Part shown: piece after piece, positions 2 through 33,164 of the stretch
How positions within the stretch are numbered: the stretch's first letter is position 1
Layout: each line of letters starts with the position of its first letter
Assembly (NCBI GenBank): GCA_964561155.1
Contig: CAZLOI010000001.1
Span: 302,759 to 366,758, forward strand
Origin: an uncultured Candidatus Saccharibacteria bacterium
Lineage (GTDB): Bacteria; Patescibacteriota; Dojkabacteria; J137
Direction: 5' to 3'
DNA length: 64,000 bases
Made by a program: the position numbers and the translations under genes
Notes under the pieces: model-generated
What the model saw: the letters and a program-made list of their open reading frames with translations, nothing else
Told to the model about the DNA's origin: nothing
The model's database searches: none

Positions 2-1384
2 GATGCTGCAGGAGATGGAACTACAACAGCTGTAGTATTGGCGCAGGCAATTGTTGCAGAGGGATTTAAGAATGTAACAGCGGGTGCAAACCCAATGGAG
101 ATTAGAGTTGGAATTGAGAAGGGAGTAGATGCTGTAGTAGAAGCTTTAAAGAAGGCTGCTGTTCCTGTTAAAGGAAAAGAAGACTACGAAAGAGTAGCTA
201 CAATTTCTGCAAACGGAGATCAGGAAATCGGAAAGATATTAGCAAACATTATTAATAAGGTAGGAGCAGGAGGCGTTGTTACTGTTGAGGATGGACAGAC
301 TTTTGGATTAGTTGAGAAGTATGTTGAAGGAATGCAGTTTGATAAAGGATACCTATCGCCATACTTTGCAGTTAATGCAGATGATCAGACTGTTATTATC
401 GACAAACCAGCAATCCTAATCACAGACAAAAAGATCGGATTAGCGAAGGAGCTATTTACTGCACTAGAAAAGATTGTTGCAGCTGGAACAAGGGACGTTG
501 TTATCATTGCTGAAGATGTAGATGGGGACGCACTAGCGAACCTAATTATTAACAAGCTAAAGGGACACCTAAACGTTGTTGCAGTTAAAGCACCGGCTTT
601 CGGAGATAGAAGAAAAGCTATGCTTGAAGATATAGCTATTCTAACTGGAGGTTCTGTAATTACAGATGATCTAGGAAGAACTCTTGAGAATATGGAAGTT
701 TCTGATTTTGGTAGAGCAGACAAGGTTAAAGTTACAAAGGAAGAAACAACAATCATTCATGGAAATGGAGACAAGAAAACAATCGAAGCAAGAGTTGCAT
801 CAATTAAAAAAGAGATTGAATCAACATCTAGCGACTATGACAAGGAAAAGCTTGCTGAAAGATTGGCAAAGCTTTCTGGAGGTGTAGCAGTACTTGAAGT
901 TGGAGCTGCAAGTGAGATTGAACAAAAGGAAAGAAAGGATAGAATCGATGATGCCCTACAAGCAACAAGGGCAGCTATTGAAGAAGGTGTTGTTGCAGGA
1001 GGAGGAGTTGCTCTTCTAAATGCAAAGGTTGTTTTGGATAGTGTTAAGGTAAACAAGAACAATGATGAAATCATTGGATTAAATATCTTAAGAAATGCAC
1101 TAGAAGCCCCATTCAGACAGATAATGGCAAATGCAGGAAAGGAAGCAGCATCTTTCATAATGGATATGAAGGGAGGTAAAGGATACGATGCTAGAAATGA
1201 CAAAATTGTTGATATGATCGAAGCAGGAATCACAGACCCTGTTAAGGTTACAAGAACAGCTCTTGAGAATGCAGCATCTGTAGCTATGCTTCTATTAACT
1301 ACAGAAGCTATTGTTTCTGAGGTACCAGTAGCAGCTGAACCTAATGCTCATGCAGGACATGATCATGAGATGGATATGATGTAA
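2..1384 (+). CDS. groL: Chaperonin GroEL (Cpn60), C-terminal ~460 aa; 5' end lies outside the window
   Basis: Translation from position 2 gives DAAGDGTTTATVLAQAIVAEG..., the canonical GroEL equatorial/apical sequence. The protein ends in a Met-rich tail (HDHEMDMM) typical of GroEL. The ORF track starts at an internal Met (38), but the frame is open back to the window edge. Confidence 0.95.
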   Translation, partial: DAAGDGTTTAVVLAQAIVAEGFKNVTAGANPMEIRVGIEKGVDAVVEALKKAAVPVKGKEDYERVATISANGDQEIGKILANIINKVGAGGVVTVEDGQTFGLVEKYVEGMQFDKGYLSPYFAVNADDQTVIIDKPAILITDKKIGLAKELFTALEKIVAAGTRDVVIIAEDVDGDALANLIINKLKGHLNVVAVKAPAFGDRRKAMLEDIAILTGGSVITDDLGRTLENMEVSDFGRADKVKVTKEETTIIHGNGDKKTIEARVASIKKEIESTSSDYDKEKLAERLAKLSGGVAVLEVGAASEIEQKERKDRIDDALQATRAAIEEGVVAGGGVALLNAKVVLDSVKVNKNNDEIIGLNILRNALEAPFRQIMANAGKEAASFIMDMKGGKGYDARNDKIVDMIEAGITDPVKVTRTALENAASVAMLLLTTEAIVSEVPVAAEPNAHAGHDHEMDMM

Positions 1385-2452: not shown

Positions 2453-2773
2453 ATGAAACGATATTTGATTGACCCAATCTACTGGTACTTTTTAATCTTT
2501 TTTAAAGATTTCGCTCAAAAGAACTTTCTTAACCAGTATGTATTCTTCTTGAACAAGAGCAATACAATTCCTATGGCTAGAAACCTCTTTATTCCACTAT
2601 ACCAAGATCAAAGTAGTACAGGAAAGAGCTTGGCATTCATCATTAGATCTATTTGGATAGTATATGGGTCAATTGTTTCCACTATTAGGATAATCCCAAA
2701 TCTATTGGTTGCTGTATTTGTGTTGATGCTTCCATTCATTGGAATATTCTTCATACTTAATGCTTTTATATAA
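2453..2773 (+). CDS. Small hydrophobic/membrane protein (106 aa)
   Basis: The ORF ends 11 nt before the ClpB-like gene and has a hydrophobic C-terminal half (IIPNLLVAVFVLMLPFIGIFFILNAFI), so it is probably co-transcribed. Confidence 0.45.
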   Translation: MKRYLIDPIYWYFLIFFKDFAQKNFLNQYVFFLNKSNTIPMARNLFIPLYQDQSSTGKSLAFIIRSIWIVYGSIVSTIRIIPNLLVAVFVLMLPFIGIFFILNAFI

Positions 2774-2784: not shown

Positions 2785-5331
2785 ATGTCAAAGAACGTAA
2801 AGATAGGACAACACTACACAACAGATATCTTCTTTGATTTTAATAAGATAGATAATAAAACAGAAGGAGCTTTAGATAGCTTTGACTATAGCTTTGGAAA
2901 GATACTGAGGTACATATCATTTGGACTTGGAATAATACTTTCACTCCTTCTAGTTAGTGGCTACAGACTAAACGTATTGGTAGCATACAAACAAGATTTA
3001 CTTCTTTCTTTGCTAACAGGCATAGCAATCATGCTCTACATATACTCTTTGTACCTACTTAGAGACAAGGAATACTATACAAAGAAGAATAGTTTAGTAG
3101 CGCTAGATTTAAGAAGAGCTACCAAGGTACAGTTCGATGAATACTTTACATACGGAGTTACAAAGTTACTTAGAAACTCAGTTGAGGAGAAATCTACATT
3201 CTTGCTTAATGTGTTTAAGGAACTTGAGCACACTTCTGACTTTAAGAATGTTTTAGAATCAAGGCTAGGAGTACAGTGGGGTAGCTTTAAACAGAGATCT
3301 GAACTATATTTTTCATCAATTGATATAACGTTCAGAGGCAATATACTAAATCTTCTGAACAATCTATTTACAAACACTGTTCACTTTCAAGAAGAGCATA
3401 TAGATACAGACGTACTAATCTATACCTTTATAAAGATGCACTTAGGTAAGGTATTAGCAGAGTTTGGAGTAACCGATGTCGATTTAGAAGGTTTAAAACT
3501 ATATCAGCAGAACGTAATAAAGAAAAAAAGATACTACGAATCATGGAAGATACTTTCTCAGTTGAAACCTAAAGGAGATATCAATCGTTCATTCACATCC
3601 AGGGCAACACCTAGATTGGATGTATACGGGGAAGATCTAACAAGCAAATATTCAAAAGGAAACATTGAACTATCCATTGGTAGGGAAGAAGAGATTCGAA
3701 ACTTAATAAGAGTGCTAATGAAACCTGAAAATTCTAATGTATTGCTAGTTGGTGATCCAGGAACAGGTAAGACAAGATTCCTAAACTATCTTGCAACAAG
3801 AATGGTTGTTGAAGATATGCCTAAGAATTTGCAAGACTACAGACTAATTAAGCTGGACTTAAACAAAGTGTTTAATATGGCTCGTGGTGCTGATGAGTTT
3901 AAGATATTGCTTCAACAGTTATTCAAAGAAGTTGGTAGCTCTGGAAACATTATCCTAATTCTAGAAGAGATCACTTCAATACTAAACGTTAGAGAAGAAG
4001 CTAGGGTAGAAATTACAAATACGTTAATTGGATTAATCAAGAATTCTCAAATCAAGTTGATTGGTACTACGAATAGAAACAACTATAACAAGTTCATTAA
4101 GCCTAACAAGGCAATGGATAGTCAGTTCGAAGTTGTGAACTTTCCAGAACCAAGCAGGACAGTTACCGTTCAGATTCTCCTTGATGAAGCTAGTGATCTA
4201 GAAAAGAAATATGGAGTTACTGTTCAAGTTAACGTAATAAAACGAATAGTTGAGTTCTCTCCAAGAATTGATTCAGACAGATCGTTACCAGACAAGGCAA
4301 TTAGTCTACTGCAAGAAGGTTTGATACTTGCTCAAACACAGGATCTTAGAGTATTAAACGAAAGAACTATAGATGAACTTCTTTCTTCAAAGACTGGAGT
4401 TAAGGTAGGAGCTATATCTGAATCTGAAGTAGATAAGTTAAAGAAACTAGAAGAAGAGATGCATGGAAGAGTTGTTGGACAAGATGCAGCTATTAAGAGT
4501 ATCGCTATGGCTGTGAGACGTTCAAGAAGCGGGTTGAATGCAGATAATAGACCAACAGCATCATTCCTCTTTTTTGGTCCTACAGGAGTCGGTAAGACTG
4601 AATCTGCAAAAACTCTAGCAGATGTATATTTTGGGAACGAGAATCTACTTATAAGAGTTGATATGTCTGAATATCAGGAAGAAAGAAACCTAGAAAGGTT
4701 AATTGGTTACATTGATGAAAAAGGTAACTATCAAGGTGGTTTTCTAACTGAACGAGTTAGATCAAGACCATTTTCTTTGGTATTGCTAGATGAAATAGAC
4801 AAGGCAAACAAGAAGGTTCTAGATTTGTTTCTTCAAGTACTGGATGAAGGATACCTTACAGATGGTATGGGAAGAAAGACTGATTTTAGAAATACGATAA
4901 TCATCATGACAACCAATGCAGGTTCTTCGGAGATTGCTAAATCTACACAAAGTGGTGATGAGTATAAACAAACGTACGAGAAAGCATACGAAGTATTAAG
5001 AGATTCATTCAGAATAGAATTCTTGAATAGGCTTGATAAGATAATCATGTTTAAGTCATTAACGCTTATTGAAATTGAAAAAATTGTTGAGATAATGCTC
5101 TCTGAGTTTAGAGAGAAGTTATTAAGTAAAGGTATTGAACTAGAGTGGGATCAAGATACGTTACTTGGTTTAGCAAAGCTTGGTTACAACCCAGTGTTCG
5201 GAGCAAGAGAACTAAAGAGAGTTATTCAAGAAAATATTGAAGATCAGGTTGCTCAAGCAATCACAGAAGGTAAGATTCTTACAGGAGGCGATGTGAAGTT
5301 TGAAGGATTAAGCTTAGTTACAAAGGAATAG
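2785..5331 (+). CDS. Membrane-anchored Hsp100/Clp-family double AAA+ ATPase (ClpB/ClpV-like); no Clp_N domain, N-terminal 2-TM anchor instead
   Basis: D1 has Walker A LLVGDPGTGKT and an unusual Walker B LILEEIT (EE instead of DE). D2 has Walker A FLFFGPTGVGKT, Walker B LVLLDEIDKA and a sensor-2-like GARELKRVI. The N-terminal ~100 aa contain two hydrophobic helices (FGLGIILSLLLVSGY, LLTGIAIMLYIYSLYLL) in place of the Clp N-domain. No IGF/L ClpP-docking loop is obvious. Confidence 0.8.
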   Translation: MSKNVKIGQHYTTDIFFDFNKIDNKTEGALDSFDYSFGKILRYISFGLGIILSLLLVSGYRLNVLVAYKQDLLLSLLTGIAIMLYIYSLYLLRDKEYYTKKNSLVALDLRRATKVQFDEYFTYGVTKLLRNSVEEKSTFLLNVFKELEHTSDFKNVLESRLGVQWGSFKQRSELYFSSIDITFRGNILNLLNNLFTNTVHFQEEHIDTDVLIYTFIKMHLGKVLAEFGVTDVDLEGLKLYQQNVIKKKRYYESWKILSQLKPKGDINRSFTSRATPRLDVYGEDLTSKYSKGNIELSIGREEEIRNLIRVLMKPENSNVLLVGDPGTGKTRFLNYLATRMVVEDMPKNLQDYRLIKLDLNKVFNMARGADEFKILLQQLFKEVGSSGNIILILEEITSILNVREEARVEITNTLIGLIKNSQIKLIGTTNRNNYNKFIKPNKAMDSQFEVVNFPEPSRTVTVQILLDEASDLEKKYGVTVQVNVIKRIVEFSPRIDSDRSLPDKAISLLQEGLILAQTQDLRVLNERTIDELLSSKTGVKVGAISESEVDKLKKLEEEMHGRVVGQDAAIKSIAMAVRRSRSGLNADNRPTASFLFFGPTGVGKTESAKTLADVYFGNENLLIRVDMSEYQEERNLERLIGYIDEKGNYQGGFLTERVRSRPFSLVLLDEIDKANKKVLDLFLQVLDEGYLTDGMGRKTDFRNTIIIMTTNAGSSEIAKSTQSGDEYKQTYEKAYEVLRDSFRIEFLNRLDKIIMFKSLTLIEIEKIVEIMLSEFREKLLSKGIELEWDQDTLLGLAKLGYNPVFGARELKRVIQENIEDQVAQAITEGKILTGGDVKFEGLSLVTKE

Positions 5332-5344: not shown

Positions 5345-5611
5345 ATGCTAGTACAAATACCAAACCTAAGTCAGATTGATACCTTACCTGAACTATTAAA
5401 CTTGTTGATTGGATTAACTCAAAGAGGTTTCTATCTAACATTTCTTTTGTTCCTAATGTATGGAGCATACATGTACATGGTATCAAGAGGTGATGAAGAG
5501 AAGGTTGTTAAGGCAAGAAACATTCTTGTATATGCAATTATAGGTTTTGTAATTGGAGTATTGGCAAACCCATTTTCACAAATTCTTCTTGGCATCTTGA
5601 ATCAAGGTTAA
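5345..5611 (+). CDS. Two-TM hairpin protein, paralog 1 of 7 (no signal peptide; starts directly with the mature-like VQIPN segment)
   Basis: The segment VQIPNLSQIDTLPELLNLL...SRGDEEKVVKARNILVYAIIGFVIGVLA aligns residue-for-residue with the mature part of the next ORF (VQIPNPTNIDSLEELINAV...AQGDDSKVEKAKKIIVTAIIGFVLAVLA). Confidence 0.6.
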   Translation: MLVQIPNLSQIDTLPELLNLLIGLTQRGFYLTFLLFLMYGAYMYMVSRGDEEKVVKARNILVYAIIGFVIGVLANPFSQILLGILNQG

Positions 5612-5698
5612 CTGCTACCGAACGAAGACACGTTAGAATATTCTAATATTGTTAACACTCCTTGCTCATTAGTATTTATTTGTATAGAATATCTTCAT

Positions 5699-6058
5699 AT
5701 GAAAAAATTCTATACAACTCTCGCAATATTATTCACTTACTTTTCAGCATTCGTTTCTCCTGTATTTGCTACAGGTGGTAGTTTTGTACAGATACCTAAT
5801 CCTACAAACATAGATTCACTAGAGGAATTAATTAATGCAGTAGCGAAGTTAATTGTTCCATTATTTATCCTAACTTTCCTTGCAATGCTTTTATTCGGAG
5901 CATTCACATACTTAACTGCACAAGGAGATGATTCAAAGGTTGAAAAAGCAAAGAAGATTATTGTTACAGCTATCATCGGTTTTGTATTAGCAGTCCTAGC
6001 TCCATCTATCGCTAACTTTGTTGCTAGTCTATTAGGAATCGAAGGGTTATCTTTCTAG
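5699..6058 (+). CDS. Secreted two-TM hairpin protein (VirB2/TrbC-pilin-like topology), paralog 2
   Basis: It has a signal peptide (MKKFYTTLAILFTYFSAFVSPVFATG), then TM1, a charged loop (QGDDSKVEKAKK) and TM2. It is homologous to ORFs 5345, 7263 and 7714. Confidence 0.7.
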   Translation: MKKFYTTLAILFTYFSAFVSPVFATGGSFVQIPNPTNIDSLEELINAVAKLIVPLFILTFLAMLLFGAFTYLTAQGDDSKVEKAKKIIVTAIIGFVLAVLAPSIANFVASLLGIEGLSF

Positions 6059-6059
6059 A

Positions 6060-6698
6060 ATGAAGAAAATATTTTTAGTCACTTTCTTGGTTATAGGATT
6101 CTTTGTAGCATTCCCTACAACAACGCATGCACTTACGGGAAATCCAAAAGCATGTGAGTCACCTGGTGATATACCCAATATCTGCAGAGACAACTATGCT
6201 CCTGATAATGCTTGTAATATTGCAAGAATTGCAAACCCTGAAATTGATTGCTGTATGAATTATTGTCCAGAGTTTCCGAGTACTAGGTACAATGCCGCTG
6301 GAGATTGTGCTTCAGGTAATGAAGCAGCCTGTGAAGCAGCAAGTGTATTCAGTAGCTTAAATATTTTTGGAACTAGGATTCAATATACTCCAGACAAGAT
6401 TCCTTCGTTAATTCAGTTAGCAATTTCCGCAGCGCTAGCAGTCGTTTCATTCTATGCATTATTTAGAGGAATGTTCCTATATGCAATTAAGAGACCTAAT
6501 ACAACAGATGCAGCAGAGGTTGCAAAGATTAATAAAGAGTTTGGAAACATTATTGTTGGGTTTGTACTAGCGTGGTCAGTGATATTTATAGTAGAGTTTG
6601 TTATGAGATTATTAGGGTTACCTTCATTGTCTCAGATTAATGTAAATACTTTAGATGATCCTGCAAATCCAGGTTCAAATGTAATTATTATTCAATAG
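6060..6698 (+). CDS. Secreted Cys-rich protein with a C-terminal two-TM hairpin, paralog 3 (divergent)
   Basis: It has a signal peptide, a ~70-aa ectodomain containing about 10 Cys (CESPGDIPNICRDNYAPDNACNIARIANPEIDCCMNYCPEF...), then two hydrophobic helices separated by the loop KRPNTTDAAEVAKINKEFGN. The topology matches its neighbours, but the GD[DE]xK motif is absent. Confidence 0.55.
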   Translation: MKKIFLVTFLVIGFFVAFPTTTHALTGNPKACESPGDIPNICRDNYAPDNACNIARIANPEIDCCMNYCPEFPSTRYNAAGDCASGNEAACEAASVFSSLNIFGTRIQYTPDKIPSLIQLAISAALAVVSFYALFRGMFLYAIKRPNTTDAAEVAKINKEFGNIIVGFVLAWSVIFIVEFVMRLLGLPSLSQINVNTLDDPANPGSNVIIIQ

Positions 6699-6699
6699 T

Positions 6700-7260
6700 A
6701 TGAAAAGATTAGGTCTAGGAATGATATTGGTATTGTTCTTGTACACCAAAGCAATGGCGCAGGGTATAGGAGATGTGGGAACAGAAGAGTGGGGATTACA
6801 AGCAATTAGGATTCCAATCTTTTCAACTTTGTTTACTGATCTTGCAAACTACAATACTGTTTTATCTTGGATTACATTCGCAGGAAGTATTATAGTTTCT
6901 GGTGTAGTTATCTACTGGATATACAAGATCTTAAGAGCTGGTATTCAAGCAATTCAAGCTGAAGGAGATGATGCAAAGATTACGGATGCTAGATTAAGAC
7001 TACAGGCAGCGTTGTCTGGAGTTGCATTCACTTTGTTGGTTCCAATAGTATTAAGCTTTGTAGGAGTTATATTTGGTTTTGGAACTATGTTCCAGTGGCC
7101 AAAGTCTTTCTCTGGATGTACGCAGCCTAATCAAGGAAATGAATTCTACCCACAATCAGAAGGAGGTTACCAGTATTATTTCCAAGCTTTTCTTCAGGAA
7201 GGAAGTGAAGAAGCTGCTACAGCTGTATGTAACCCAGTTGATGCAAACTTAGATAGATAA
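6700..7260 (+). CDS. Secreted two-TM hairpin protein, paralog 4
   Basis: It has a signal peptide (…KAMAQG), then TM1, the loop AIQAEGDDAKITDARLR, and TM2. The C-terminal tail contains two Cys. Confidence 0.65.
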   Translation: MKRLGLGMILVLFLYTKAMAQGIGDVGTEEWGLQAIRIPIFSTLFTDLANYNTVLSWITFAGSIIVSGVVIYWIYKILRAGIQAIQAEGDDAKITDARLRLQAALSGVAFTLLVPIVLSFVGVIFGFGTMFQWPKSFSGCTQPNQGNEFYPQSEGGYQYYFQAFLQEGSEEAATAVCNPVDANLDR

Positions 7261-7262
7261 AT

Positions 7263-7622
7263 ATGCAAGACGACTCACTATGCGGTATTGTTGGATGTGA
7301 TATTAATCAAGGAGAGAACTATCTTCTTAACTTGGATAATATTGTTCAGACAGGTCTAACTGTTTTGTTCTCTTTGATAATTATCTATGGAATATTCATG
7401 ATTATCAAAGCTGTTGTTAAGATTATTTCTAGTGAAGGAGATGAAGGGAAGCTTGAGTCTGGATTGAAAAGTATTCGTGGAGTTTATTACGGTGTTGTCA
7501 TTATATTCGTAGGATTAATAGGATTGGTAATAATCTTTGCTTTGTTTAATGTAACAGAGCTTCCTGATAATGTAGATCTTCCAGGAGGAGATGGCGGAGT
7601 AATAACCGACCCTTTCAACTAG
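7263..7622 (+). CDS. Two-TM hairpin protein, paralog 5
   Basis: TM1 (LTVLFSLIIIYGIFMII), the loop KIISSEGDEGKLESGLKSIRG, then TM2. It is about 50% identical to ORF 7714 across the hairpin. Confidence 0.65.
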   Translation: MQDDSLCGIVGCDINQGENYLLNLDNIVQTGLTVLFSLIIIYGIFMIIKAVVKIISSEGDEGKLESGLKSIRGVYYGVVIIFVGLIGLVIIFALFNVTELPDNVDLPGGDGGVITDPFN

Positions 7623-7713
7623 AGTAAATCTTCTAGCCTTATTGTCTTTTGGTCTTGTATCTTCTAATAATTTCTAATAGAATAGGTTAAATACATATTA
7701 AGAAAACTATATT

Positions 7714-8166
7714 ATGAAGAAATTCTTCGCAACGCTTTTTGTAATGTTCTTTGCTGTTACACCATTTATAGCTCCTGTAGCACATGGTCAAAATCTAATC
7801 TGTAGAGTATTTCCATTCATTGAACAAATTAAGGCTTTTGGAGTAGATGCTTTATGTGGAGGATTAACTTCAGAGGGACCAATCGATTCTGCTAGATCAC
7901 TAGTTCAAGTAGGATTAAACTTAGTATTTGTTGGTATTATCATCTTAGCAATCTTTATTATTGTTAAGGCTGCTATCAACTATATTAGATCAGAAGGAGA
8001 CGAGGACAAGATCAAGAGTGCAAACAAATCTATCAAAGCTGTATTTACTGGTATCATTGCATTATTCGTAGGAATTATCGGTATTATATTAGTTCTTGCT
8101 ATATTCAATGCTACAGAAGTAGTTCCAAATGAACTACCAGATGAGTTAGACGTACTTAATGAATAG
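7714..8166 (+). CDS. Secreted two-TM hairpin protein, paralog 6
   Basis: It has a signal peptide (…APVAHGQ) and two Cys in the N-terminal ectodomain, then TM1, the loop NYIRSEGDEDKIKSANKSIKA, and TM2. The acidic C-terminal tail matches that of ORF 7263. Confidence 0.7.
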   Translation: MKKFFATLFVMFFAVTPFIAPVAHGQNLICRVFPFIEQIKAFGVDALCGGLTSEGPIDSARSLVQVGLNLVFVGIIILAIFIIVKAAINYIRSEGDEDKIKSANKSIKAVFTGIIALFVGIIGIILVLAIFNATEVVPNELPDELDVLNE

Positions 8167-8172
8167 TAATGA

Positions 8173-8886
8173 ATGAAGATTTGTGCATTTCTAATAATAG
8201 GAATCATATTCCAATCTCTTACAAGTCCTGTTGTCGCACAAACACAGGACTTTGATTTTTCAGGCAATAATCCTGACTCCTACCAGTGCTTCGATGGAAG
8301 CGGACAACCAGATACCACATCAAATATTGTAAAAGATGAGTTACGGGGATTCTTTTTCTGCGATACGAATAATAATGGCTTCTATAATGCTGGTGAAGAA
8401 CAAGCAGTTTTAAGGCCTCCAAGGCTTCAGCAAATTGAAGTCTGGTTCGTAAGAATCATTTATGTGGTTTGGGCACTAGTTGGAGCATACTCGTTCTATC
8501 TTCTAGTAGTTCTTGGATATCAGGTAATGATCTCTCGAGGAGACCCAACATCCCTACCAAAGATTAGACAAAGAATTATTAACTACATGATTGGTTTTGC
8601 TTTAGTATTTCTAGCTATTCCAATATTAGATACGTTCTTTAGACTGCTTGGTATAAATAAAACAGTCAGCTGTTACGATGTTCAGATGCCTGGGTTCCAA
8701 TTCTTCTTTACAACACTATGTAGCGGTACAGATCCTTGTTCCTTCACTGCAGCTCAGCTAGCAGATGGTATTGTATGTCCGATCAGGAATGAAAGGAGAG
8801 CATGTGATACTGGTGCCCAAGGAGAATTTGAAATCTTCCTTTGTGACCCAGAAGCCCAGATTTGGACAAGTATAGGAACTCAATAG
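8173..8886 (+). CDS. Secreted Cys-rich protein with a central two-TM hairpin, paralog 7 (largest ectodomains)
   Basis: It has a signal peptide (…SPVVAQT) and an N-terminal ectodomain with two Cys, then TM1, the loop MISRGDPTSLPKIRQR, and TM2. The C-terminal ectodomain carries 7 Cys (SCYDVQMPG…LCSGTDPCSF…VCPIRNERRACDTG…FLCDPE). Confidence 0.6.
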   Translation: MKICAFLIIGIIFQSLTSPVVAQTQDFDFSGNNPDSYQCFDGSGQPDTTSNIVKDELRGFFFCDTNNNGFYNAGEEQAVLRPPRLQQIEVWFVRIIYVVWALVGAYSFYLLVVLGYQVMISRGDPTSLPKIRQRIINYMIGFALVFLAIPILDTFFRLLGINKTVSCYDVQMPGFQFFFTTLCSGTDPCSFTAAQLADGIVCPIRNERRACDTGAQGEFEIFLCDPEAQIWTSIGTQ

Positions 8887-8887: not shown

Positions 8888-10390
8888 ATGAACCTAAAAC
8901 TAAAGTCATATAAAATTAATGACGATGTGTACATCGGTGACTATTCTGTATTAAAAACTTCAGACTCATTCATCGCATCCCTTAGAAACCTAGATACCTC
9001 AATATCAGATTCATCAACACATACAATTGAACTAGATATCAATGGCACTATCTGCACGATTACAAAACTTGATGAAACAATAACTGTAATATTCAATGAT
9101 GCTTCATACACTTCTTTAAACGAACTATTCCAGACTGAATTTAAAACTAACTTTAATTCAAATACTTGGAAAGAGCATTTCCTAGATATAAATGAATCAG
9201 GTATTTCTGATGTTGCTTCCTTTAATACATTCTTGTCTGGATTAACAAAGGAAGTTGTTGATACCAATGCACCAAAAAAAGAATTAGATAACCTAATATT
9301 ACAAAGCTTGGAGTCCGCAACAGATGAAAACAAGAAAGCATTGCAACGCTTTCAGGAGTTAACAGCAAAGATTTATACATCTGAAGAAAAAGTGGATGTA
9401 TACAACAACTATCAAAGTATTGTTAAAGCAAAGAAGGAGGAAAAGGATTCAATCCTGAGAGAGAAGGAACGATTGGTACAAGTACTATCTAGTTCAAAAG
9501 AGTTAATCGAATCAAAGGCGAGACTGGAGAATGAAGTTAACGTTGTATTGGAAGGGTCTGATCCTGAAGTACTTAAGAATACAATCACACAAGTTAAAGA
9601 TACTAGAATGAATCATCTTGTAAACTACATGCAAGAAGTGAAAGGTCAACACAAGTACGATGCTGAAGAGAAGGAAAGAGATTTGATGGTACCAAAAGCT
9701 TTTATAGTTATTCTACTAGTTCAATCGCTGGTATCCATTTCTTTGTTCTTTGTAACAGGGGATGTAATAGCGTTTATGTATTTGATTCTTGGTTGGATCC
9801 TAGCAATAGGTGGTGGGATTCTATTTCAAATCTATGCATACGATACAATAGCAGCTCAATTTGATAGCTCAGATGAATCTCAAGATACAGCTCCAAAGCC
9901 ACGAAGAGAATTCACGCTTAAGGTAGATGAGACACAAGACAAAGATTTAATAAAACATGCGTGGGTTGAAGCACTAAGAAGAGATCTACAAGAAGTTGTG
10001 AGTTCATTAAACCAAAGACTTGGCTCTATGACATACGAGGAACTTCAAGATAGGATGAAAGAGTTAGAAACAAAGGGAGTATTATTAGATGAAGAGATAA
10101 AAAAGCTTGATGGAGAGAAGATCGATCAAGATGATTACTATAAATTTAGAAGAGAATTAGATATCTATAGTATCGAAAGAGAGAATCTGCTGGTCAATTT
10201 GGAAGGAAAAGTAGACAATGGACTAATAGAGAATATAAAATATAGTATTAGCCGAATTTCTGACGCCAAGAAAGTTTCAGAAACAAAGCAAATAAAGTTG
10301 CCCTTTATTATTTTTAACCTTAAGGAAAAAGTAGCTTGGATAAAAGATTTACAGGTACAAAACAGTACTCAAGTATTGTTCTTCGAATAA
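8888..10390 (+). CDS. Coiled-coil membrane protein (500 aa) with a central 2-TM hairpin flanked by cytoplasmic coiled-coil domains
   Basis: Hydrophobic helices sit at about aa 272-320 (AFIVILLVQSLVSISLFFVTG / FMYLILGWILAIGGGILFQIYAY). The flanks are rich in heptad-like E/K/L repeats. No catalytic motif was found. Confidence 0.55.
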   Translation: MNLKLKSYKINDDVYIGDYSVLKTSDSFIASLRNLDTSISDSSTHTIELDINGTICTITKLDETITVIFNDASYTSLNELFQTEFKTNFNSNTWKEHFLDINESGISDVASFNTFLSGLTKEVVDTNAPKKELDNLILQSLESATDENKKALQRFQELTAKIYTSEEKVDVYNNYQSIVKAKKEEKDSILREKERLVQVLSSSKELIESKARLENEVNVVLEGSDPEVLKNTITQVKDTRMNHLVNYMQEVKGQHKYDAEEKERDLMVPKAFIVILLVQSLVSISLFFVTGDVIAFMYLILGWILAIGGGILFQIYAYDTIAAQFDSSDESQDTAPKPRREFTLKVDETQDKDLIKHAWVEALRRDLQEVVSSLNQRLGSMTYEELQDRMKELETKGVLLDEEIKKLDGEKIDQDDYYKFRRELDIYSIERENLLVNLEGKVDNGLIENIKYSISRISDAKKVSETKQIKLPFIIFNLKEKVAWIKDLQVQNSTQVLFFE

Positions 10391-12156
10391 CAGCAATATT
10401 CCTCATTGCTATCATTTCAGTTAGCCCTGTATGGGCTAGAAGTTCTACAGAAATTGGACAAGACATTATCAACAAACAAAGAGAGATTGAAGAGAACGAA
10501 CGAAGGCTAGCTGAATCTGCTGCTAATAGACAAAGATACGAAGCAGATGCAGCAAGTCTTCAGGAAGGTGTACCTCAACTAGAGGCTCAAATTAAACAAC
10601 TCGAAGAAGAGTTGAATGGTATTAAGCTTGAAATTAGTATTCTTGAACAGGAACAAGCTCTAAAGGAACTGGAAAGAGAACGAACTCAGTTTAATCAGAA
10701 TCAAACGATTAAGGGTTCATACATGGACTGGAAGAGTACAAGTCATGATGTGCGAATGTTTGTAGATGAAGATGTAGAGTTTAATAGGATACAGCAGTAT
10801 CAATCTGCAATTGCGGGAAACAATAAAGTAACTATAGATAACCTAACAGGGGAATTGATAAAGATAGATGGTCAAATGTCAGTATTAAGTCAAAAGAAAG
10901 CTGACTTAGAAGTTAAAGAAGCAGAAGTTCAGGAACAAAAAAGACAACTAGAAGAAACATTGGCTCGGTTAAGATGGGGAATAAGCTACGAAGCAGGAAA
11001 TCTTGCGGCTATAGATAACTCGATTAAGCAAGCTAGACAAGATATCGATCTACTATCCGCAGAGCAACAAGCTGCAATGGCAAGAGAGCAGGAGATCTTA
11101 CAGAATAACCCGGGTGTTGAAAACTCAGCTGGTTGCGATGGAGCAGTAGCTGGAAGCAATAGTTTCTACTTCTGTGGAAATGGACGAGATTTGTATCAAG
11201 GACACGGTGTAGGTATGAGTCAATATGGAGCTAAAGGTGCTGCAGAGCAGGGTGCGAGTGCTGTTTCGATAGTAGAGTTCTATTATCCTGGAGCGGTTGT
11301 TACAACAATAGCTGAACCTGCAGAAATCTCAATTAAATACTGCCAAGGAAACCCAGGTTTAGCTCCCTATCAAGAAAACTGTTATTACGGAGGTAACTAC
11401 TACGGTCCTGTTATAACTGAAAGAATTAGCTTTATCGACTACCTCGGTGGATTGGGTGAAATGCCATACAGTTGGCCAGTTGAGGCAAGAAAAGCTCAGA
11501 TGATTGCAGCTAGAACATACGCACTTAAAAGAACTAATAACGGAGATCCTAATTACCCAATCTGCCTAACATCATACTGTCAGGTATCGTATGTAAAAAA
11601 TGGTCAGACTCATGAAAGACAGTTAGCGATAGATACTCAAAACCAAGTTCTAATGTATGGCGGAGTTTTAATTGATGCTTTGTATTCTGCAGACAATAGT
11701 CAGAATAACGGTACAGCAGATTACGATACAAGATTTCAAAACGTATATGGTCAAGCAAACGGTAATTATCCATACCTAAGATCAGTAAATGATCAAGGTT
11801 GGGCATGGAATTCAAGAATGTACTATTTCCAGTATTGTGGTTCACATGCATGCGGACTATGGCCATGGAAAACAAGGACGTATTCATATGCAGAATTTGA
11901 TAATTTCTTAACGTGGGTTGGAAATAACTTGTATTGGGAGTTCGGTACTGCAAAAAATGCAGTAGGAAATACAAATTATATTAACTTCGAACGAGATGCA
12001 TCTGGTAGAATTAAGAAGATTTTAATATATGGTACAAATGGATCATATACTCTAGGAGGATGGTGGTTCAAGAACGCATGGATATCTTGGGTAGCATCGA
12101 CTGGAACATATGACTATATATACAGTCAGACTTTAAACGTAGTACAGAATAACTAA
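10336..12156 (+). CDS. Secreted/anchored coiled-coil protein with a C-terminal SpoIID/LytB-type cell-wall lytic domain
   Basis: N-terminal hydrophobic signal/anchor (ITAIFLIAIISVSPVWA), ~230 aa of coiled coil, then the SpoIID-family hallmarks GHGVGMSQYGAKGAA and ALYSADNSQNNGTADYDTRFQNVYG...YPYLRSVND. The annotated start overlaps the preceding ORF by 55 nt, so the true start may be downstream. Confidence 0.75.
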   Translation: MDKRFTGTKQYSSIVLRITAIFLIAIISVSPVWARSSTEIGQDIINKQREIEENERRLAESAANRQRYEADAASLQEGVPQLEAQIKQLEEELNGIKLEISILEQEQALKELERERTQFNQNQTIKGSYMDWKSTSHDVRMFVDEDVEFNRIQQYQSAIAGNNKVTIDNLTGELIKIDGQMSVLSQKKADLEVKEAEVQEQKRQLEETLARLRWGISYEAGNLAAIDNSIKQARQDIDLLSAEQQAAMAREQEILQNNPGVENSAGCDGAVAGSNSFYFCGNGRDLYQGHGVGMSQYGAKGAAEQGASAVSIVEFYYPGAVVTTIAEPAEISIKYCQGNPGLAPYQENCYYGGNYYGPVITERISFIDYLGGLGEMPYSWPVEARKAQMIAARTYALKRTNNGDPNYPICLTSYCQVSYVKNGQTHERQLAIDTQNQVLMYGGVLIDALYSADNSQNNGTADYDTRFQNVYGQANGNYPYLRSVNDQGWAWNSRMYYFQYCGSHACGLWPWKTRTYSYAEFDNFLTWVGNNLYWEFGTAKNAVGNTNYINFERDASGRIKKILIYGTNGSYTLGGWWFKNAWISWVASTGTYDYIYSQTLNVVQNN

Positions 12157-16910: not shown

Positions 16911-19358
16911 ATGTTTAGCTCAGCCGTAATCGGAAATATTCTTATTGTATTCTTAATACTAGTTCTAGCCGGTGTTATTATCTTCAGCTTGTATTCCTGG
17001 CTCTTGACCGAATTAAAAGAAAGAGTCTTAATGGACAAGTCTTTAAACCTAGTATTCTACGAAGTTAGACTAGCAAGAAACAGCGAAGTAGAGATAAAGG
17101 CTATGGAACAGTTGTTCTCAGGACTAACTGGATTCTCTGAAGATCTTAAAGGAATGAAAGGGTTCATAGGAGCTAGAACTTTTGTAAGTTTTGAACTCGT
17201 CGCATATTATCAAAGTATTAGATTCTACGTAGTTTGTCCTAAAAAGATATCAAGTGTTGTTGATAGATTAATCAACGGAACATACCCTAGTGCTGAGATA
17301 ATGAAAGTTAAAGAGTATAACTTGTTCCCTGATCAGGGAAGTGTTTCATACGCTAGTTTGGAAGTAGACAAGGATTGGAAGATACCATTTCAAACATATG
17401 AAGAACTACCAGTAGATAGTTTGGCTACCCTTACAGATGTAATGAGTAAGCTAGGACCAGGTGAAAGTGCTGCTTTCCAGATTGTAATTGCTCCAGCAGG
17501 AGGAGACTGGATTAAATCATCAAAGGAATATGCAAAGAAGATTAGAGAAGATGCGCAGCCAAAGACTGCAAAGGAAGGAGAGCCTGCACCTAAACCTGCA
17601 AAACAGAAGGTGCCAGATGAGACTCTTTCATTAATTGAACGTAAAGCTGAGAAGAATGGTTTCTATACAGATCTTCGTGTTGTAGTTTGTTCTCCGGACA
17701 AGTTTTCTGCAGACAATCATATGACCAATATATTAAGTACCTTCGATCAGTTCTCAAAGATTGGAGGAAGCAAGCTTAAGAAGACCAAAGACAAGAACAA
17801 ACTAAAGACGATATCTAGAGATTTTATATACAGGCTGCCAAGGAACAAGATGGTTTTGAATGCAACGGAGCTTGCAACACTGTACCATTTCCCAAGCAAG
17901 AGTATTCAGGCTCCACATATTAAATGGTTGTTGTCCAAGAAGCTACCTGCTCCTGACTTCACTACAAATCAGTGGGAGAAGGACTATATGTATATTGGAA
18001 AGAATACTTTCAGAGGATCGGAGAAAGAGATATTCTTAAAACCTGATTCAAGACTTAGACACTTCTATATAATCGGACAAACTGGTTCTGGTAAGTCTGG
18101 TTTCATGCTTTCCATGATGGTTAGAGATATTAAGATGGGACATGGTTGTGCATATATAGACCCACACGGATCAGATGCAGAGAAGATATTGCAGCAGATT
18201 CCACCAGAGAGAATAGAGGATGTGATTGTTTTTGATCCATCAGATATCGAAAGACCTATGGGTCTTAATATGTTGGAATTTAAAACTCCTGCACAGAAGA
18301 CTTTGGTTACCAATGAGATGCTTAATATCTTTGATAGTTTGTATAACCTAAAGGTTACTGGAGGACCTATGTTCGAGCAGTACTTTAGATATGGAATCAT
18401 GCTTTTAACAGAGGATGAGGAATCGGGATCAACTCTTCTAGAGATACCTAAGCTATTCGCGGATGAAGGCTACAGAAACTATAAACTATCTAAGTGTAAG
18501 GATCAGGAAGTTATAGACTTCTGGAGAAAGCAGGCAGAGGCAGCCGGAGGAGAAGCTTCCCTTAAGAATATTGTTCCATACGTTGTTTCAAAGCTTGCTC
18601 CTTTCTTAACTAACGCATATCTAAGACCTATTGTTGCTCAACAGAAATCTACTTTAGATTTCAGAGAGATTATGGACAACAAGAAGATTCTAATTGCAAA
18701 ACTTTCTAAAGGACGTATTGGAGAGATGAATGCAAATCTTCTAGGTATGATCTTAATTGGTAAGTTACTTGTTGGAGCGCTAGAGAGAGACGAGATTCCA
18801 GAGGATGACCGTATTCCTTTCTATCTATACATCGACGAGTTCCAGAACTTCTTAACAGATGGTATCCAGATTATTCTTTCTGAGGCTAGAAAATACAAGC
18901 TTTCCCTAACCATCGCTCACCAGTTCCTTGGTCAACTAACAAGACAGGGTGGAGATACAAAGATTAAGGATGCTGTTTTTGGTAACGTTGGTAACAAGGC
19001 TATTTTCAGAGTTGGAGAGGAGGATTCACCGTTCCTAAGGAAAGTATTGGATGGAGAATTGGAGGAATCAGATCTACAACAGATTGAAAACTTAATGGCT
19101 TTTGTAAAGATTCAGGTTGATGGGAAACCAACTCCTGCTTTTACGCTCACAGCGAGATATGGGGAGTCTCCATACGATATGATGTCAGAACCCAACCCAC
19201 AGCTTTCTAACCTCATTAAGCAGGTCTCTAGGCTCAAATATGGCAAGGATGCATCTCTTGTAGAGAATGAAGTTAAGTTAAGGGGTAGTTTCATTAAAGA
19301 GAAGACAGAGGAAACCAAGAAACCAGGAGGAATGTTTGGTGGGTTCCCAGGATTTTAA
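16911..19358 (+). CDS. T4SS-type P-loop ATPase, VirB4/TrbE/CagE-like (alternatively VirD4/TraG-like), with an N-terminal TM anchor
   Basis: An N-terminal 28-aa hydrophobic helix is followed by a Walker A at about 48% of the length (HFYIIGQTGSGKSG) and a Walker B with downstream Gln about 245 aa later (PFYLYIDEFQNFL…EARKYKLSLTIAHQFLGQL). The size (815 aa) and the Walker A position fit VirB4 better than VirD4. This is a motif-memory assignment; no search was run. Confidence 0.65.
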   Translation: MFSSAVIGNILIVFLILVLAGVIIFSLYSWLLTELKERVLMDKSLNLVFYEVRLARNSEVEIKAMEQLFSGLTGFSEDLKGMKGFIGARTFVSFELVAYYQSIRFYVVCPKKISSVVDRLINGTYPSAEIMKVKEYNLFPDQGSVSYASLEVDKDWKIPFQTYEELPVDSLATLTDVMSKLGPGESAAFQIVIAPAGGDWIKSSKEYAKKIREDAQPKTAKEGEPAPKPAKQKVPDETLSLIERKAEKNGFYTDLRVVVCSPDKFSADNHMTNILSTFDQFSKIGGSKLKKTKDKNKLKTISRDFIYRLPRNKMVLNATELATLYHFPSKSIQAPHIKWLLSKKLPAPDFTTNQWEKDYMYIGKNTFRGSEKEIFLKPDSRLRHFYIIGQTGSGKSGFMLSMMVRDIKMGHGCAYIDPHGSDAEKILQQIPPERIEDVIVFDPSDIERPMGLNMLEFKTPAQKTLVTNEMLNIFDSLYNLKVTGGPMFEQYFRYGIMLLTEDEESGSTLLEIPKLFADEGYRNYKLSKCKDQEVIDFWRKQAEAAGGEASLKNIVPYVVSKLAPFLTNAYLRPIVAQQKSTLDFREIMDNKKILIAKLSKGRIGEMNANLLGMILIGKLLVGALERDEIPEDDRIPFYLYIDEFQNFLTDGIQIILSEARKYKLSLTIAHQFLGQLTRQGGDTKIKDAVFGNVGNKAIFRVGEEDSPFLRKVLDGELEESDLQQIENLMAFVKIQVDGKPTPAFTLTARYGESPYDMMSEPNPQLSNLIKQVSRLKYGKDASLVENEVKLRGSFIKEKTEETKKPGGMFGGFPGF

Positions 19359-20082: not shown

Positions 20083-20937
20083 TCAGATCTCCTTTAAACC
20101 TCTAAACTCTTTCTCTTTGTATTTCTTTGATAGTAGTTCTAGGTATCTTTCAGTTGTTCCTGGGGATTTGTGTCCTACGATGTGAGATAGGTCACTGATT
20201 GGTACACCGTTAGATAGTTGGAATACGATGAATGCATTCCTGAAATCATTTACAGATGCACTGGATACCTTTGCTCTCTGGAAATATCTGGATAGAGAAG
20301 CTCTAATGTTTCTAATCTCCATTCTTCGATTCTTCTTTGTACAGAACACATACTTCTCTGGATTATTCTCAACAATATATGCCTTAAGTATTCCGTAGAT
20401 CTTGTCACACATAGGAATATCTCTTGCTGGTATGGAATCCTGCTGATTGATGTGAATATTAGGATTCTTACGATCAAAAGTTATATCCAGAACCTGCAGA
20501 TTCGCAAGCTCAGATATCCTAATACCAGTTTGAATCAGTAATTCAAGCATCGTATAGATCTTATCGTTCTCCTTACAAACCTCTCTAATCTTATTAATCT
20601 CTAAAAGACTTAAAGTTCTTGGTTTAGACTGAATATATTTAGGGTGAACAATCTTACCTGAGAAGTCTTCTTCGATGATCTTTCTTTCAGCGAGGAACTT
20701 AACAAAGGTTCGGTATGTATTAATTTTTCTTGCAACGGTCTTAATGGCACTATAGGATTTTTTAATTTCTCGGTATATTTCGTTGTAGTCATCAAGCGAA
20801 AGGGTAACTACTTCTTTGTTTCCGGAGATACTGATTAACTGCTTAATATCAGCAATGTACGCGATGAGGGTTGACTTACTCTTCTTCTTTCTCTTAAGAT
20901 ATTCTTGGAACTGATTTAATGCTGTTTGGTTGTTCAT
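20083..20937 (-). CDS. Tyrosine site-specific recombinase (phage-integrase/Xer family)
   Basis: It has an N-terminal SAM-like core-binding domain. The catalytic motifs are box I RISELANL, …HIVGHKSPGTTERYLEL (the H-x-x-G-H…Y nucleophile region), and RNAFIVFQLSNGVPISDL. It lies immediately 5' of tRNA-Ile(UAU) on the same strand. Confidence 0.85.
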   Translation of the reverse strand: MNNQTALNQFQEYLKRKKKSKSTLIAYIADIKQLISISGNKEVVTLSLDDYNEIYREIKKSYSAIKTVARKINTYRTFVKFLAERKIIEEDFSGKIVHPKYIQSKPRTLSLLEINKIREVCKENDKIYTMLELLIQTGIRISELANLQVLDITFDRKNPNIHINQQDSIPARDIPMCDKIYGILKAYIVENNPEKYVFCTKKNRRMEIRNIRASLSRYFQRAKVSSASVNDFRNAFIVFQLSNGVPISDLSHIVGHKSPGTTERYLELLSKKYKEKEFRGLKEI

Positions 20938-21726: not shown

Positions 21727-24108
21727 ATGGACAAAACTAAAACACCAGAGAAGAAGAAAGATATTGAGAAAGTAAGGGCAGAAATGTCTAGGAAAGTAAT
21801 GGAGATGAATAAGAAGAATGGTTCGAAAGGATCAACTGTGTTCTCATTTGGATTTGGAAGAAATCCACTAATTGTTTTAGTAGTCTCAATATTATTAATA
21901 TTCTTTATTCTTCAACTCTTCAATAGAGGTGTTGGAACTGGAAATATTGGTATTACAGATACTATCAATGGAATTAAGGAGAACAGATTCTCTCAATTCA
22001 TAGTTCAGAATGATGGAACTGTTCAGGTATATGGAAAGCAGTACTATGTTGTTGCTGACGCAGATACATTGGCTGACTCTCTAAAGGATTCAACTGAATA
22101 CAAGTTTACTGATTCAAGAGTTGGAGGTATTGAAGAGATTACTCTAGATAGACTTATAGAGGAATTAAACGACAACGATCTAATTGCACAGTTACGAAGT
22201 GCTTTAAGTAGAGGTGGAAGCGGTATATCGGAACTTGTTATAGCAGATAACTTTATCCTAGCTTTGAGAAGCGGTGCTCAGTTAGACTTCATTGTTAGAG
22301 GCGCTACAGAAGCAGATATAGAGGCAAAGCTACAGACAAAGAACCTATCTTTGGCTACAATCCCTCAGAAGGTTAGTAAATTAAAGTATCTAGCAAAGAG
22401 TGTAGATAATTCATTGTTTGTTGATACTCTAAATAGCAATGCATTCAGTAATGTAATCTATCTAGAAGAAAATGGACTTGCTTTAGCTAAGCTTAAGACA
22501 AGTACTACTTTCAGGGCAGCAATAGATTGGACTCCAGTTATTTCAACATTCACAACGCTACTACAGCAGGAAGATATTAATCTAAGTGCTACTAACTTCG
22601 AAATCATTACTCAAAATATAAGTGAAGGTATTTCATTTAGCGATATATTAACTCTACTAACTCTTGTTGGATTCGTTGTAATAGCATTCATGCTGTTCAG
22701 AGGTGTTCAGGGAGGAGGAGGAATGGGTATTGCTCAATTTGGTCAGAGTAAGGCAAAGCTTTTCTTTGGATCAAAGATTGATACTACATTTAAGGATGTA
22801 GCTGGTATTGATGAAGCTAGAGATGAGTTGAATGAAGTTGTAGATTTCTTAAGAAATCCTGCAAAGTTTAGAAAGCTAGGTGCAAGAATACCAAAGGGAA
22901 TCCTTATGGTTGGAGCTCCTGGAACTGGAAAAACATTGCTTGCAAGAGCTATTGCTGGAGAAGCAGGTGTTCCATTCTTTCATACATCAGGTTCAGAATT
23001 CGAAGAGATGCTTGTTGGAGCAGGTGCTTCTAGAGTTAGAGATCTATTTACCAAAGCAAAGAAAGCAGCTCCTGCATTAATCTTTATTGATGAAATAGAT
23101 GCTGTTGCAAGAAAGAGAGGTACAAAGGTTCAATCTGGAACTACAGAACAGACGTTGAATCAGATATTGGTTGAGATGGATGGTTTTGAAAAGAACGTTA
23201 ATGTAATAGTATTGGCGGCAACTAACAGACCTGATGTATTAGACCCAGCTATCTTAAGGCCTGGAAGATTCGACAGACAAATTAGAATTGAGCTTCCTGA
23301 TATGCAGGGTAGAAAAGAAATTCTTGCTGTACACGGAGCTAATAAGCCATTTGATGAAACTGTTGATTTGGAAAGAGTAGCTAAGAGAACTGTAGGGTTC
23401 ACTGGAGCAGATCTTGAGAATATCTTAAACGAAGCAGCCATTATTGCTGCAAGAGAAGGAAAGACAAAGGTTTCAGATGATGATATTGATGAAGCTATAT
23501 CTAAGGTTGTATTAGGCCCTGCAAAGAAGTCTAGAAAGAGAACAGAGGCAGAACTTAGCTTGGTTGCATACCACGAAGCAGGACACGCTGTCGTAGCAAA
23601 GATGATTCCTGAGGCTACTCCTGTTGATAGGATTTCTATCATTTCAAGAGGTTCATCTGGAGGAGTAACTATGTTCCTTCCTGAAAAGGATGAATATATT
23701 GTTTCAAAGAGAAAGCTTCTTGCTGAGATTGCAGTATCATTAGGAGGAAGAGCTGCGGAGGAGATTGCATTAGATGATATCTCAACAGGAGCATCTAGCG
23801 ATATTGAAAAGGCTACAAACGTTGCAAAGAGAATGATTCAAAGATTTGGTATGAGTGAAAAGATGGGATTGGTACAGTATGGAGACTTTGAAGAGAATGA
23901 CTATCTTGGATATGCATACTCAAACTCAAAGGAATATTCAGACAAGACAGCGCAGGATATCGATGCAGAAGTTAAGTTGCTGGTAACAGAAGCTTATGAA
24001 AGAGCAAAGAAGATTCTTAACGACAACAGAGAAAAATTGGATTCTGTAGCTAAGGAGTTATTGGAAAAGGAGGTTCTTGGAAAGGAAGACTTCGATAGAT
24101 TGTTCTAG
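21727..24108 (+). CDS. ftsH: ATP-dependent zinc metalloprotease FtsH with an extended ~300-aa extracytoplasmic domain
   Basis: It has two TMs flanking a long ectodomain. The AAA motifs are [27 protein letters not shown], Walker [11 protein letters not shown] and the SRH region. The zinc site is HEAGHAVVA. Confidence 0.95.
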
Positions 24109-31160: not shown

Positions 31161-32684
<1,524 letters not shown>

Positions 32685-32841
32685 CAAAAGGAGTTTGATT
32701 ATAAGTAATTTATAATCTGACCCAAGTTTTAGATTTGCTCAAAGTACTTGACGTTTCCTTATCACTTTTTAAGAGTTTAAAAGAACCTTAAATCAAAATA
32801 TCACTAATGGTGAACTACCCATGGTAGCTAGCCTGCATCAC

Positions 32842-32915
32842 AGGCGATTAGCTCAGGTGGTTAGAGCGCTCCTCTGATAAGGGAGAGGTCCCAAGTTCGA
32901 GTCTTGGATCGCCTA
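32842..32915 (+). tRNA. tRNA-Ile (GAU) in 16S-23S spacer
   Basis: Acceptor AGGCGAT/ATCGCCT, anticodon loop CUGAUAA, T loop TTCGAGT. Confidence 0.9.
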
Positions 32916-32984
32916 TTTAATTATAGGAGGGGTCAAGTAAGGAACACGAGCAATTTGCTCGAAACGGCCTACTAGCCGTTTCTC

Positions 32985-33057
32985 GGGGTCTTAGCTTAGC
33001 TGGTAGAGCGCCTCATTTGCAATGAGGAGGTCATGGGTTCGAATCCCATAGACTCCA
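32985..33057 (+). tRNA. tRNA-Ala (UGC) in 16S-23S spacer
   Basis: Acceptor GGGGTCT/AGACTCC with the G3:U70 Ala identity pair, anticodon loop UUUGCAA. Confidence 0.9.
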
Positions 33058-33164
33058 TTTAATATTTAGTAATCTGCTTTCTCGCAAGAGAGAGTAGATA
33101 ACTGAAAGTTAAAACTTTTAGTGATTAATTGATCTTTAACAACTGAATAGAAGGTGAATAACCG

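Follow-up and report, generated by a model that had tools for sequence, protein, structure and literature searches.

The window analyzed here, a stretch of 64,000 nucleotides of contig CAZLOI010000001.1 (assembly GCA_964561155.1, Dojkabacteria), carries near its start a gene for an AAA+ protein of the class-1 Clp/Hsp100 type with a predicted membrane anchor. The gene begins 11 nt after an open reading frame (ORF) for a small membrane protein, and its stop codon lies 13 nt before the first gene of an array of VirB2-like pilins of a type IV secretion system (T4SS). A preliminary description of this DNA, made from the sequence alone, had given the 13-nt spacing correctly; it had not mentioned the small upstream ORF. 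The features of the window are listed in Table 1.

Table 1. Positions of the features of the window, with strand and basis of assignment
Feature	Position	Strand	Details and basis
Membrane-anchored (predicted) class-1 Clp/Hsp100 AAA+ gene	2785-5331	+	848 aa; ORF translation, Pfam, alignments
N-terminal hydrophobic hairpin	2902-3060	+	TM1 aa 40-60, TM2 aa 72-92, then invariant L91-x-R93; hydropathy, family alignment A1
Highly divergent Clp N-domain fold	3127-3534	+	aa ~115-250; undetected by Pfam
Clade-specific linker motif SQLKPKGDINRSFTSRATPRLDVYGEDLT	3556-3642	+	aa 258-286; near-invariant or invariant in alignments A1 and A3
D1 AAA+ module, degenerate	3652-4329	+	Alignment to ClpB; family and clade conservation
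D2 AAA+ module and D2-small domain	4417-5298	+	Pfam, ClpB alignment, clade conservation
Small membrane partner protein	2453-2773	+	106 aa; family HMM, synteny, AlphaFold2 model
Array of seven VirB2-like T4SS pilin paralogs	5345-8886	+	Pfam PF18895, iterated pilin HMM, NCBIfam
Pilin ORFs	5345-5611, 5699-6058, 6060-6698, 6700-7260, 7263-7622, 7714-8166, 8173-8886	+	Iterated HMM matches 7/7
groEL, 5' end cut by the window edge	38-1384	+	ORF translation; Cpn10-Cpn60 directly upstream in L001-L004
SpoIID/LytB-domain protein, cell-wall enzyme	10336-12156	+	Same conserved block
VirB4/VirD4-like T4SS ATPase	16911-19358	+	Pfam DUF87, TraG-D_C; weak NCBIfam TraD, TrbC, VirD4, VirB4
Tyrosine recombinase/integrase	20083-20937	-	Just after the VirB4-like ATPase block, opposite strand
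FtsH	21727-24108		793 aa; AAA domain from aa 392; hydrophobic segments near aa 47 and 306
rRNA operon, complete	31161-36459		16S 31161-32684, two tRNAs, 23S 33164-36204, 5S 36342-36459
Canonical ClpC	38512-40998		Clp_N, short M-domain, Walker B ILFIDE, Arg-finger motif SRRF, GYIG pore loop, MGF ClpP loop

Pfam placed two AAA+ modules in the 848-aa product, with matches over cut-off to AAA (77 bits, aa 319-442) and AAA_lid_9 for the first, and to AAA_2 (173.7 bits, aa 589-753) and ClpB_D2-small (76 bits, aa 760-838) for the second. Two modules of which the second is of the AAA_2 type with ClpB_D2-small, together with the double-repeat Clp N-domain considered below, are the features of a class-1 Clp/Hsp100 protein. 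The NCBIfam Hsp100 equivalogs were matched far under their cut-offs, namely ClpB (TIGR03346, 496.4 bits against 1232.1; PRK10865, 410.1 against 1417), ClpA (457.6 against 993.15 and, with a second model, 352 against 1350), ClpV (399 against 884.95) and EccA (25 against 466.65). Membership in ClpB, ClpA/ClpC, ClpV or EccA was therefore rejected, and the product was placed as an Hsp100 outside every named subfamily. An FtsH-like protease identity was also rejected, since a protease domain is lacking from the product and the window encodes a normal FtsH elsewhere. The claim of the preliminary description that this is a second, specialized Hsp100 besides a canonical ClpC was upheld, the ClpC having Clp_N, an Asp-Glu Walker B, paired arginine fingers and an MGF loop. 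The nearest relatives were Candidatus Dojkabacteria proteins of 840-864 aa with 39-100% identity. Motifs were assigned by residue-by-residue alignment to ClpB of E. coli and T. thermophilus and followed in a family alignment of 16 sequences (A1) with identity reaching down to 39%. A middle (M) domain was absent from the product in the ClpB alignment: ClpB residues ~391-506 had no counterpart, the query being contiguous at aa 509-514, and ClpA was collinear with the product over residues 165-732.

The domain order was a predicted N-terminal transmembrane (TM) hairpin, a divergent Clp N-domain, D1 and D2. Kyte-Doolittle means over 19 aa reached 2.0 at aa 40-60 and 1.96 at aa 72-92, and both hydrophobic segments kept their position in the 16 relatives and clade-wide; they were predicted to be TM helices solely from hydropathy and positional conservation. 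The preliminary description had two TM helices replacing Clp_N. The two conserved segments stood, and Pfam found no Clp_N in the product or in its Dojkabacteria relatives of 840-864 aa, nor in the Dojkabacteria proteins when ten N-region fragments were searched at E<=10. The replacement, however, did not stand. Profile-profile comparison (hhalign) aligned the N-region of the family with canonical Clp_N in register at an E-value of 6.6e-5, and an AlphaFold2 model of aa 91-300 had eight helices with a predicted local distance difference test (pLDDT) score of about 90 in its core. From profile-profile and fold comparison, the Clp N-domain is retained in divergent form behind the TM hairpin. Remoter membrane-anchored relatives (P0020-22 and P0024) had weak Pfam Clp_N matches behind their TM segments, which suggests that the anchor was added ahead of the domain and not substituted for it. 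P0020, P0021 and P0022 (loci L005 and L023, outside Dojkabacteria) also had a zinc-ribbon-like CxxC...CxxC motif N-terminal to the TM segment. With the N-terminal 275 aa alone as query, a word-indexed homology search returned no match, because this region evolves too fast.

In D1, the Walker A motif GDPGTGKT (aa 323-330) was intact and the P-loop was conserved throughout the family alignment. Walker B read ILILEE, with E394 and E395 aligned to D278 and E279 of E. coli ClpB, so that the reading of an intact Walker A with Glu-Glu for Asp-Glu was confirmed; E394, at the Walker B Asp position, was invariant in the family. By its motifs, D1 is much more degenerate than an Asp-to-Glu change implies. 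The arginine-finger pair was replaced by Ser-Gln (ClpB ALERRFQ aligned to AMDSQFE), and the position of ClpB Tyr251 in the pore loop was Gly368. D1 arginine fingers and an aromatic D1 pore loop were found in no member of the 16-sequence alignment, and likewise in none of the clade-wide comparison. Across the clade the D1 Walker B varied freely (EE, DD, EN, TD, PN, HD). The P-loop Thr was often lost outside Dojkabacteria, including in many members with the CxxC...CxxC motif, and Walker B was lost too. The D1 of the product thus fell short of a competent module: the P-loop was there, but Walker B was Glu-Glu and the fingers were Ser-Gln.

The D2 module had been described as fully canonical. Its ATPase motifs were indeed all kept, including Walker A GPTGVGKT, Walker B LLDE, sensor 1 N711, arginine finger R749 and sensor 2 GARELKR, and they were conserved in the 16-sequence family and invariant across the clade. 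The pore loop, however, did not bear out that description: in GYIDEKGNYQGG, ClpB Tyr653 aligned to K646, so that neither of the two ClpB pore-loop tyrosines (Tyr251 as G368, Tyr653 as K646) was present. The family consensus of this loop in the 16 sequences was GY[T/I]DxKGN[F/Y]xGG, and the Dojkabacteria branch had aromatic residues (Y642 and Y649) beside the canonical position, not at it. Most members outside Dojkabacteria had a shortened D2 loop without an aromatic residue, for example RLIGSP----QNSTPGLLTE; L047 was the only one of them to keep a GAPPGYRG loop. Judged from these loops, it is doubtful that the clade threads substrates by the canonical, tyrosine-based mechanism, though less so for the Dojkabacteria branch. 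An IGF/IGL/VGF tripeptide for ClpP docking was absent from aa 706-752 and from every clade member examined, while the ClpC of the window has MGF at residue 682. Because the D1 motifs are degenerate and the D2 ATPase motifs are invariant clade-wide, D1 would be a pseudo-ATPase or assembly ring and D2 the motor.

A genome scan with alignment A3 and the pattern [LF]KP[KTS]G[DAG][IVM]NR[AS], taken from the clade motif, retrieved 48 loci from the Candidate Phyla Radiation (CPR). The scan reached other CPR groups, including Uhrbacteria, Komeilibacteria, Falkowbacteria and Parcubacteria. Members of this wider clade shared the predicted TM anchor, the motif KPKGDVNRAYT..TP.LD, a degenerate D1 and a small ORF upstream. 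A neighbor-joining tree of D2, built without bootstrap support, placed the TM-anchored proteins together with the target in one clade that excluded canonical ClpB and ClpC. The number of independent observations is lower than the locus counts given here, since several loci are closely related. Many of the genomes with the gene pair (L010-L054) bear the title 'uncultured Gammaproteobacteria' or 'uncultured Candidatus Saccharibacteria'; since Dojkabacteria, Uhrbacteria and Komeilibacteria are their nearest named relatives, these titles look like mislabels.

The upstream small ORFs were homologous to one another across loci. A hidden Markov model (HMM) of this family matched the ORF directly 5' of the TM-anchored Hsp100 in 48 of 49 loci, the sole exception being a locus in which the partner region was cut by the locus edge, and it also matched in L057 and L059. 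The two ORFs mostly overlapped by 4 or 13 nt. When the neighbors in 33 loci outside Dojkabacteria were clustered, the partner was the only universal one; the others were housekeeping genes alone, namely those for tRNA-guanine transglycosylase, a MraY/WecA-like glycosyltransferase and glycyl-tRNA synthetase. The partner signature was FPxWWY ... KNLFxPMYGQxDxxGRxISFFxR followed by a hydrophobic tail with a conserved LP, or more loosely WWY ... NLFxP(L/M)Yx(D/Q)xSxxG(R/K)xxxFxxR followed by a hydrophobic C-terminal helix. An AlphaFold2 model of the partner (pLDDT 96.5) consisted of a helix at residues 2-35, the conserved loop at 44-54 and a helix at 55-105. No Pfam match was obtained in 40 members of the family, NCBIfam likewise gave nothing, and no homology was found to partner proteins of the Torsin or PTEX type (LAP1/LULL1, EXP2). 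In P0055 the partner domain was fused to the N-terminus of the ATPase, and an exhaustive HMMER search yielded at least 15 further full-length cluster representatives that were such fusions, as confirmed by their D2 motifs; that search used a narrow 5-sequence profile and matched at least 158 clusters, a lower bound. The fusion proteins had two hydrophobic segments, which suggests that the C-terminal helix of the partner takes the place of TM1 and would leave the conserved hairpin on the cytoplasmic side. The invariant partner of the ATPase is the upstream small membrane protein, not the pilins.

Other neighbors were shared by parts of the clade. In 14 loci outside Dojkabacteria the gene directly 3' of the ATPase was the MraY/WecA-like one, and in 17 the tRNA-guanine transglycosylase gene lay about 1 kb upstream (both among L021-L056); both adjacencies probably reflect inherited gene order. 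Chaperone-type genes stood just upstream of the pair in three lineages: groESL in Dojkabacteria (L001-L004), dnaJ in L057 (3619-4494) and a PpiC/SurA-type rotamase gene in L006 (8467-9561).

Downstream of the ATPase, two ORFs of the array exceeded the PF18895 gathering threshold of 26.6 bits (5345-5611 with 33.0 and 5699-6058 with 52.7), while 8173-8886, at 20.2, was below it; NCBIfam gave a pilin-like conjugal transfer match. The array lay directly 3' of the ATPase in 14 of 14 distinct Dojkabacteria-type loci with downstream sequence, a count that includes the window and takes L001 and L009, which share a contig, once. Each of these loci had 5-7 ORFs matching the iterated pilin HMM, and the gap from ATPase to pilin was 3-134 nt except in L004, where another ORF intervenes. 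Four relatives with 72, 49, 47 and 39% identity (L001-L004) had the same order of groES, groEL, small ORF, ATPase, pilin array, further ORFs and a protein of ~820-950 aa. In L003, smpB came after this protein, with a large ORF behind it at the locus edge; the window has the VirB4-like ATPase after smpB. The SpoIID-domain protein was syntenic in L001 and L002. L001 had six pilin matches against the seven of the window. The first pilin of the window (5345-5611, 88 aa) begins exactly at the mature-region motif VQIPN, without a signal peptide, and has 51% identity over 85 aa to the mature part of 5699-6058, which has one; possible explanations are a pseudogene or a tandem duplicate that has been truncated. 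A scan for promoters and terminators found no more sites than in shuffled sequence.

The preliminary description had proposed a dedicated unfoldase for this array. Adjacency in relatives was confirmed by the 14 Dojkabacteria-type loci, but the iterated pilin HMM found no pilin near the ATPase in 36 other CPR loci (0/36), for which flanks of ~8-10 kb were fetched. In a second test, with Pfam on 35 small multi-TM ORFs, PF18895 matched the positive control only. Dedication to pilins is not the ancestral role of the ATPase; such dedication is possible in the Dojkabacteria lineage. The adjacency probably represents a single event inherited within that lineage. The conserved block also holds groES-groEL upstream and smpB within it, which means that the genes here keep their order whatever their function. 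VirB2-like pilin arrays in CPR bacteria have already been described and are essential in Southlakia (PMC12102498; PMC10633639).

The arrangement of the protein can be compared with that of several known systems. Hsp100 machines are textbook soluble unfoldases. The target resembles ClpA and ClpC in its order of N-domain, D1 and D2, in a collinear D1-D2 junction without a long M-domain and in having most of the catalytic machinery in D2; unlike them, it lacks the IGL/VGF ClpP loop, has an added TM hairpin (predicted) and has a D1 without arginine fingers or a pore tyrosine. Its best sequence matches were to ClpB/Hsp104, through D2 and D2-small, and the ClpP loop is absent in both, but the target has no M-domain, does not conserve Tyr251 or Tyr653, has a degenerate D1 and is predicted to be membrane anchored. 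ClpV/TssH differs in being soluble with functional pore loops, and linkage of the target to a secretion locus is confined to one lineage. FtsH and Msp1/ATAD1 offer a parallel in topology, as an N-terminal TM anchor sets their entry face at the membrane, and in the proposed task, extraction of membrane proteins. They are, however, single rings of the classical AAA clade with aromatic pore loops, to which FtsH adds a protease domain, whereas the target combines two Hsp100 rings with a separate small membrane subunit and lacks a protease. Torsin, which depends on the membrane partner LAP1/LULL1, is single-ringed, lumenal and without an arginine finger of its own, and in Plasmodium PTEX it is the D2 face of HSP101, a protein without a TM segment, that docks on the membrane pore EXP2; with both, the resemblance is one of principle only.

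The reading we prefer, to which we assign a probability of about 45%, is that the ATPase and the small subunit form a membrane-tethered, D2-powered machine for remodeling or extraction, with the pilins as plausible local clients. The ATPase would be a hexamer in complex with the small membrane protein, in which D1 would bind ATP and serve assembly and D2 would be the sole motor. Since the anchor lies at the N-terminus, just ~20 residues before the N-domain, it would keep the face through which substrates enter, formed by the N-domain and D1, close against the cytoplasmic surface of the membrane, the arrangement seen in FtsH and Msp1. With its entry face there, the machine would grip membrane-embedded or membrane-proximal proteins and pull or remodel them toward the cytoplasm, with no handover to ClpP. 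The module would be a general CPR device for membrane proteostasis or remodeling. In Dojkabacteria it appears to have been placed at the head of the T4SS pilin array, probably with co-transcription; there, the abundant VirB2-like pilins would be the most plausible clients, with quality control or recycling of the membrane pool of pilin as the task. Several points weigh against this reading. In most of the clade, both pore loops lack an aromatic residue, which is hard to square with canonical threading, and in the Dojkabacteria branch Y642 and Y649 sit next to the canonical position and not at it. The argument for orientation is geometric, and the pilins may be adjacent simply because small, syntenic genomes inherit their gene order.

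A narrower explanation would make the ATPase a motor dedicated to the disassembly or unfolding of the T4SS pilin array or pilus, similar to ClpV acting on the T6SS sheath, and without any general role. The 13-nt gap to the first pilin ORF and the array directly downstream in all 14 Dojkabacteria-type loci, at protein identities of 39-100%, would be expected of such a motor, and no branch other than Dojkabacteria has kept both a canonical D1 P-loop and aromatics in the D2 loop, which would fit lineage specialization. We nevertheless consider it unlikely. None of the 36 loci from the remaining clade had a pilin within ~8-10 kb, groESL and smpB in the block point to gene order kept regardless of function, and the adjacency probably arose only once. 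In addition, two papers on CPR T4SS and pilin arrays name no Clp, AAA or chaperone component (PMC12102498; PMC10633639). The groESL genes themselves raise another possibility, that the protein is a stress chaperone of the groESL operon, a disaggregase of cytosolic proteins merely parked at the membrane. The best sequence matches were to ClpB D2, groES-groEL lies directly upstream in L001-L004 and groEL upstream in the window, and the module directly follows dnaJ in L057 and a PpiC-type rotamase gene in L006. ClpB and Hsp104, however, need their M-domain for coupling to DnaK, and this domain is absent here, as are canonical pore-loop tyrosines. A conserved membrane anchor and an obligatory membrane partner would be unexplained for a cytosolic disaggregase, and in the window groEL and the module lie ~1 kb apart, with a DUF4145 ORF in between. 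We regard this explanation as improbable.

Loss of the pore-loop aromatics, clade-wide in D1 and in nearly all members outside Dojkabacteria in D2, would be accounted for if the protein did not thread substrates at all. It would then be a Torsin-like ATP switch or scaffold whose D2 turnover assembles, licenses or remodels a membrane complex through the N-domain and the partner. A catalytically degenerate D1 throughout the clade agrees with this, and reliance on a membrane partner is reminiscent of Torsin and its LAP1/LULL1. Yet D2, unlike Torsin, keeps its own arginine finger and sensor 2, and the Dojkabacteria branch keeps a near full-length D2 loop with conserved Tyr/Phe. Some AAA+ proteins, moreover, grip substrates with non-aromatic pore loops. 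A non-threading switch also seems to us a poor prospect.

In the literature we found no bacterial Hsp100 clade described that combines a membrane anchor and a pseudo-ATPase D1 with pore loops lacking the canonical tyrosines and an obligatory small membrane subunit. We suggest, tentatively and at somewhat less than even odds, that the pair is a previously undescribed, CPR-wide, two-component membrane AAA+ machine with a dead D1, a single D2 motor and tyrosine-less loops; it would then be a new kind of bacterial membrane-protein dislocase or remodeler, recruited in Dojkabacteria to manage the T4SS pilin pool. CPR bacteria live attached to host cells and rely on envelope machines such as T4SS and pilin arrays. 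Given that reliance, a conserved ATP-driven membrane remodeler would be a concrete candidate for the maintenance or recycling of envelope proteins in these reduced cells. The clade is also a natural experiment on how far an Hsp100 depends on the canonical pore-loop mechanism. In a cultured CPR relative, T4SS and pilin arrays are essential (PMC10633639).

Among the remaining features of the window, the distance from groEL to the small ORF is unusual: it amounts to ~1 kb (1385-2452), including a DUF4145 ORF at 1407-1979, compared with just ~100-200 nt in L001-L004, and this stretch resembles a local insertion. The annotated neighbors in the window included no T6SS genes. The ClpC has Leu in place of Tyr in its D1 pore loop (GARLRGDVEE), with a normal GYIG in D2. 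From the start of its AAA domain and the position of its hydrophobic segments, FtsH would have an unusually large extracytoplasmic region of ~250 aa. The rRNA operon accounts for the GC-rich, ORF-poor character of the stretch that it occupies.

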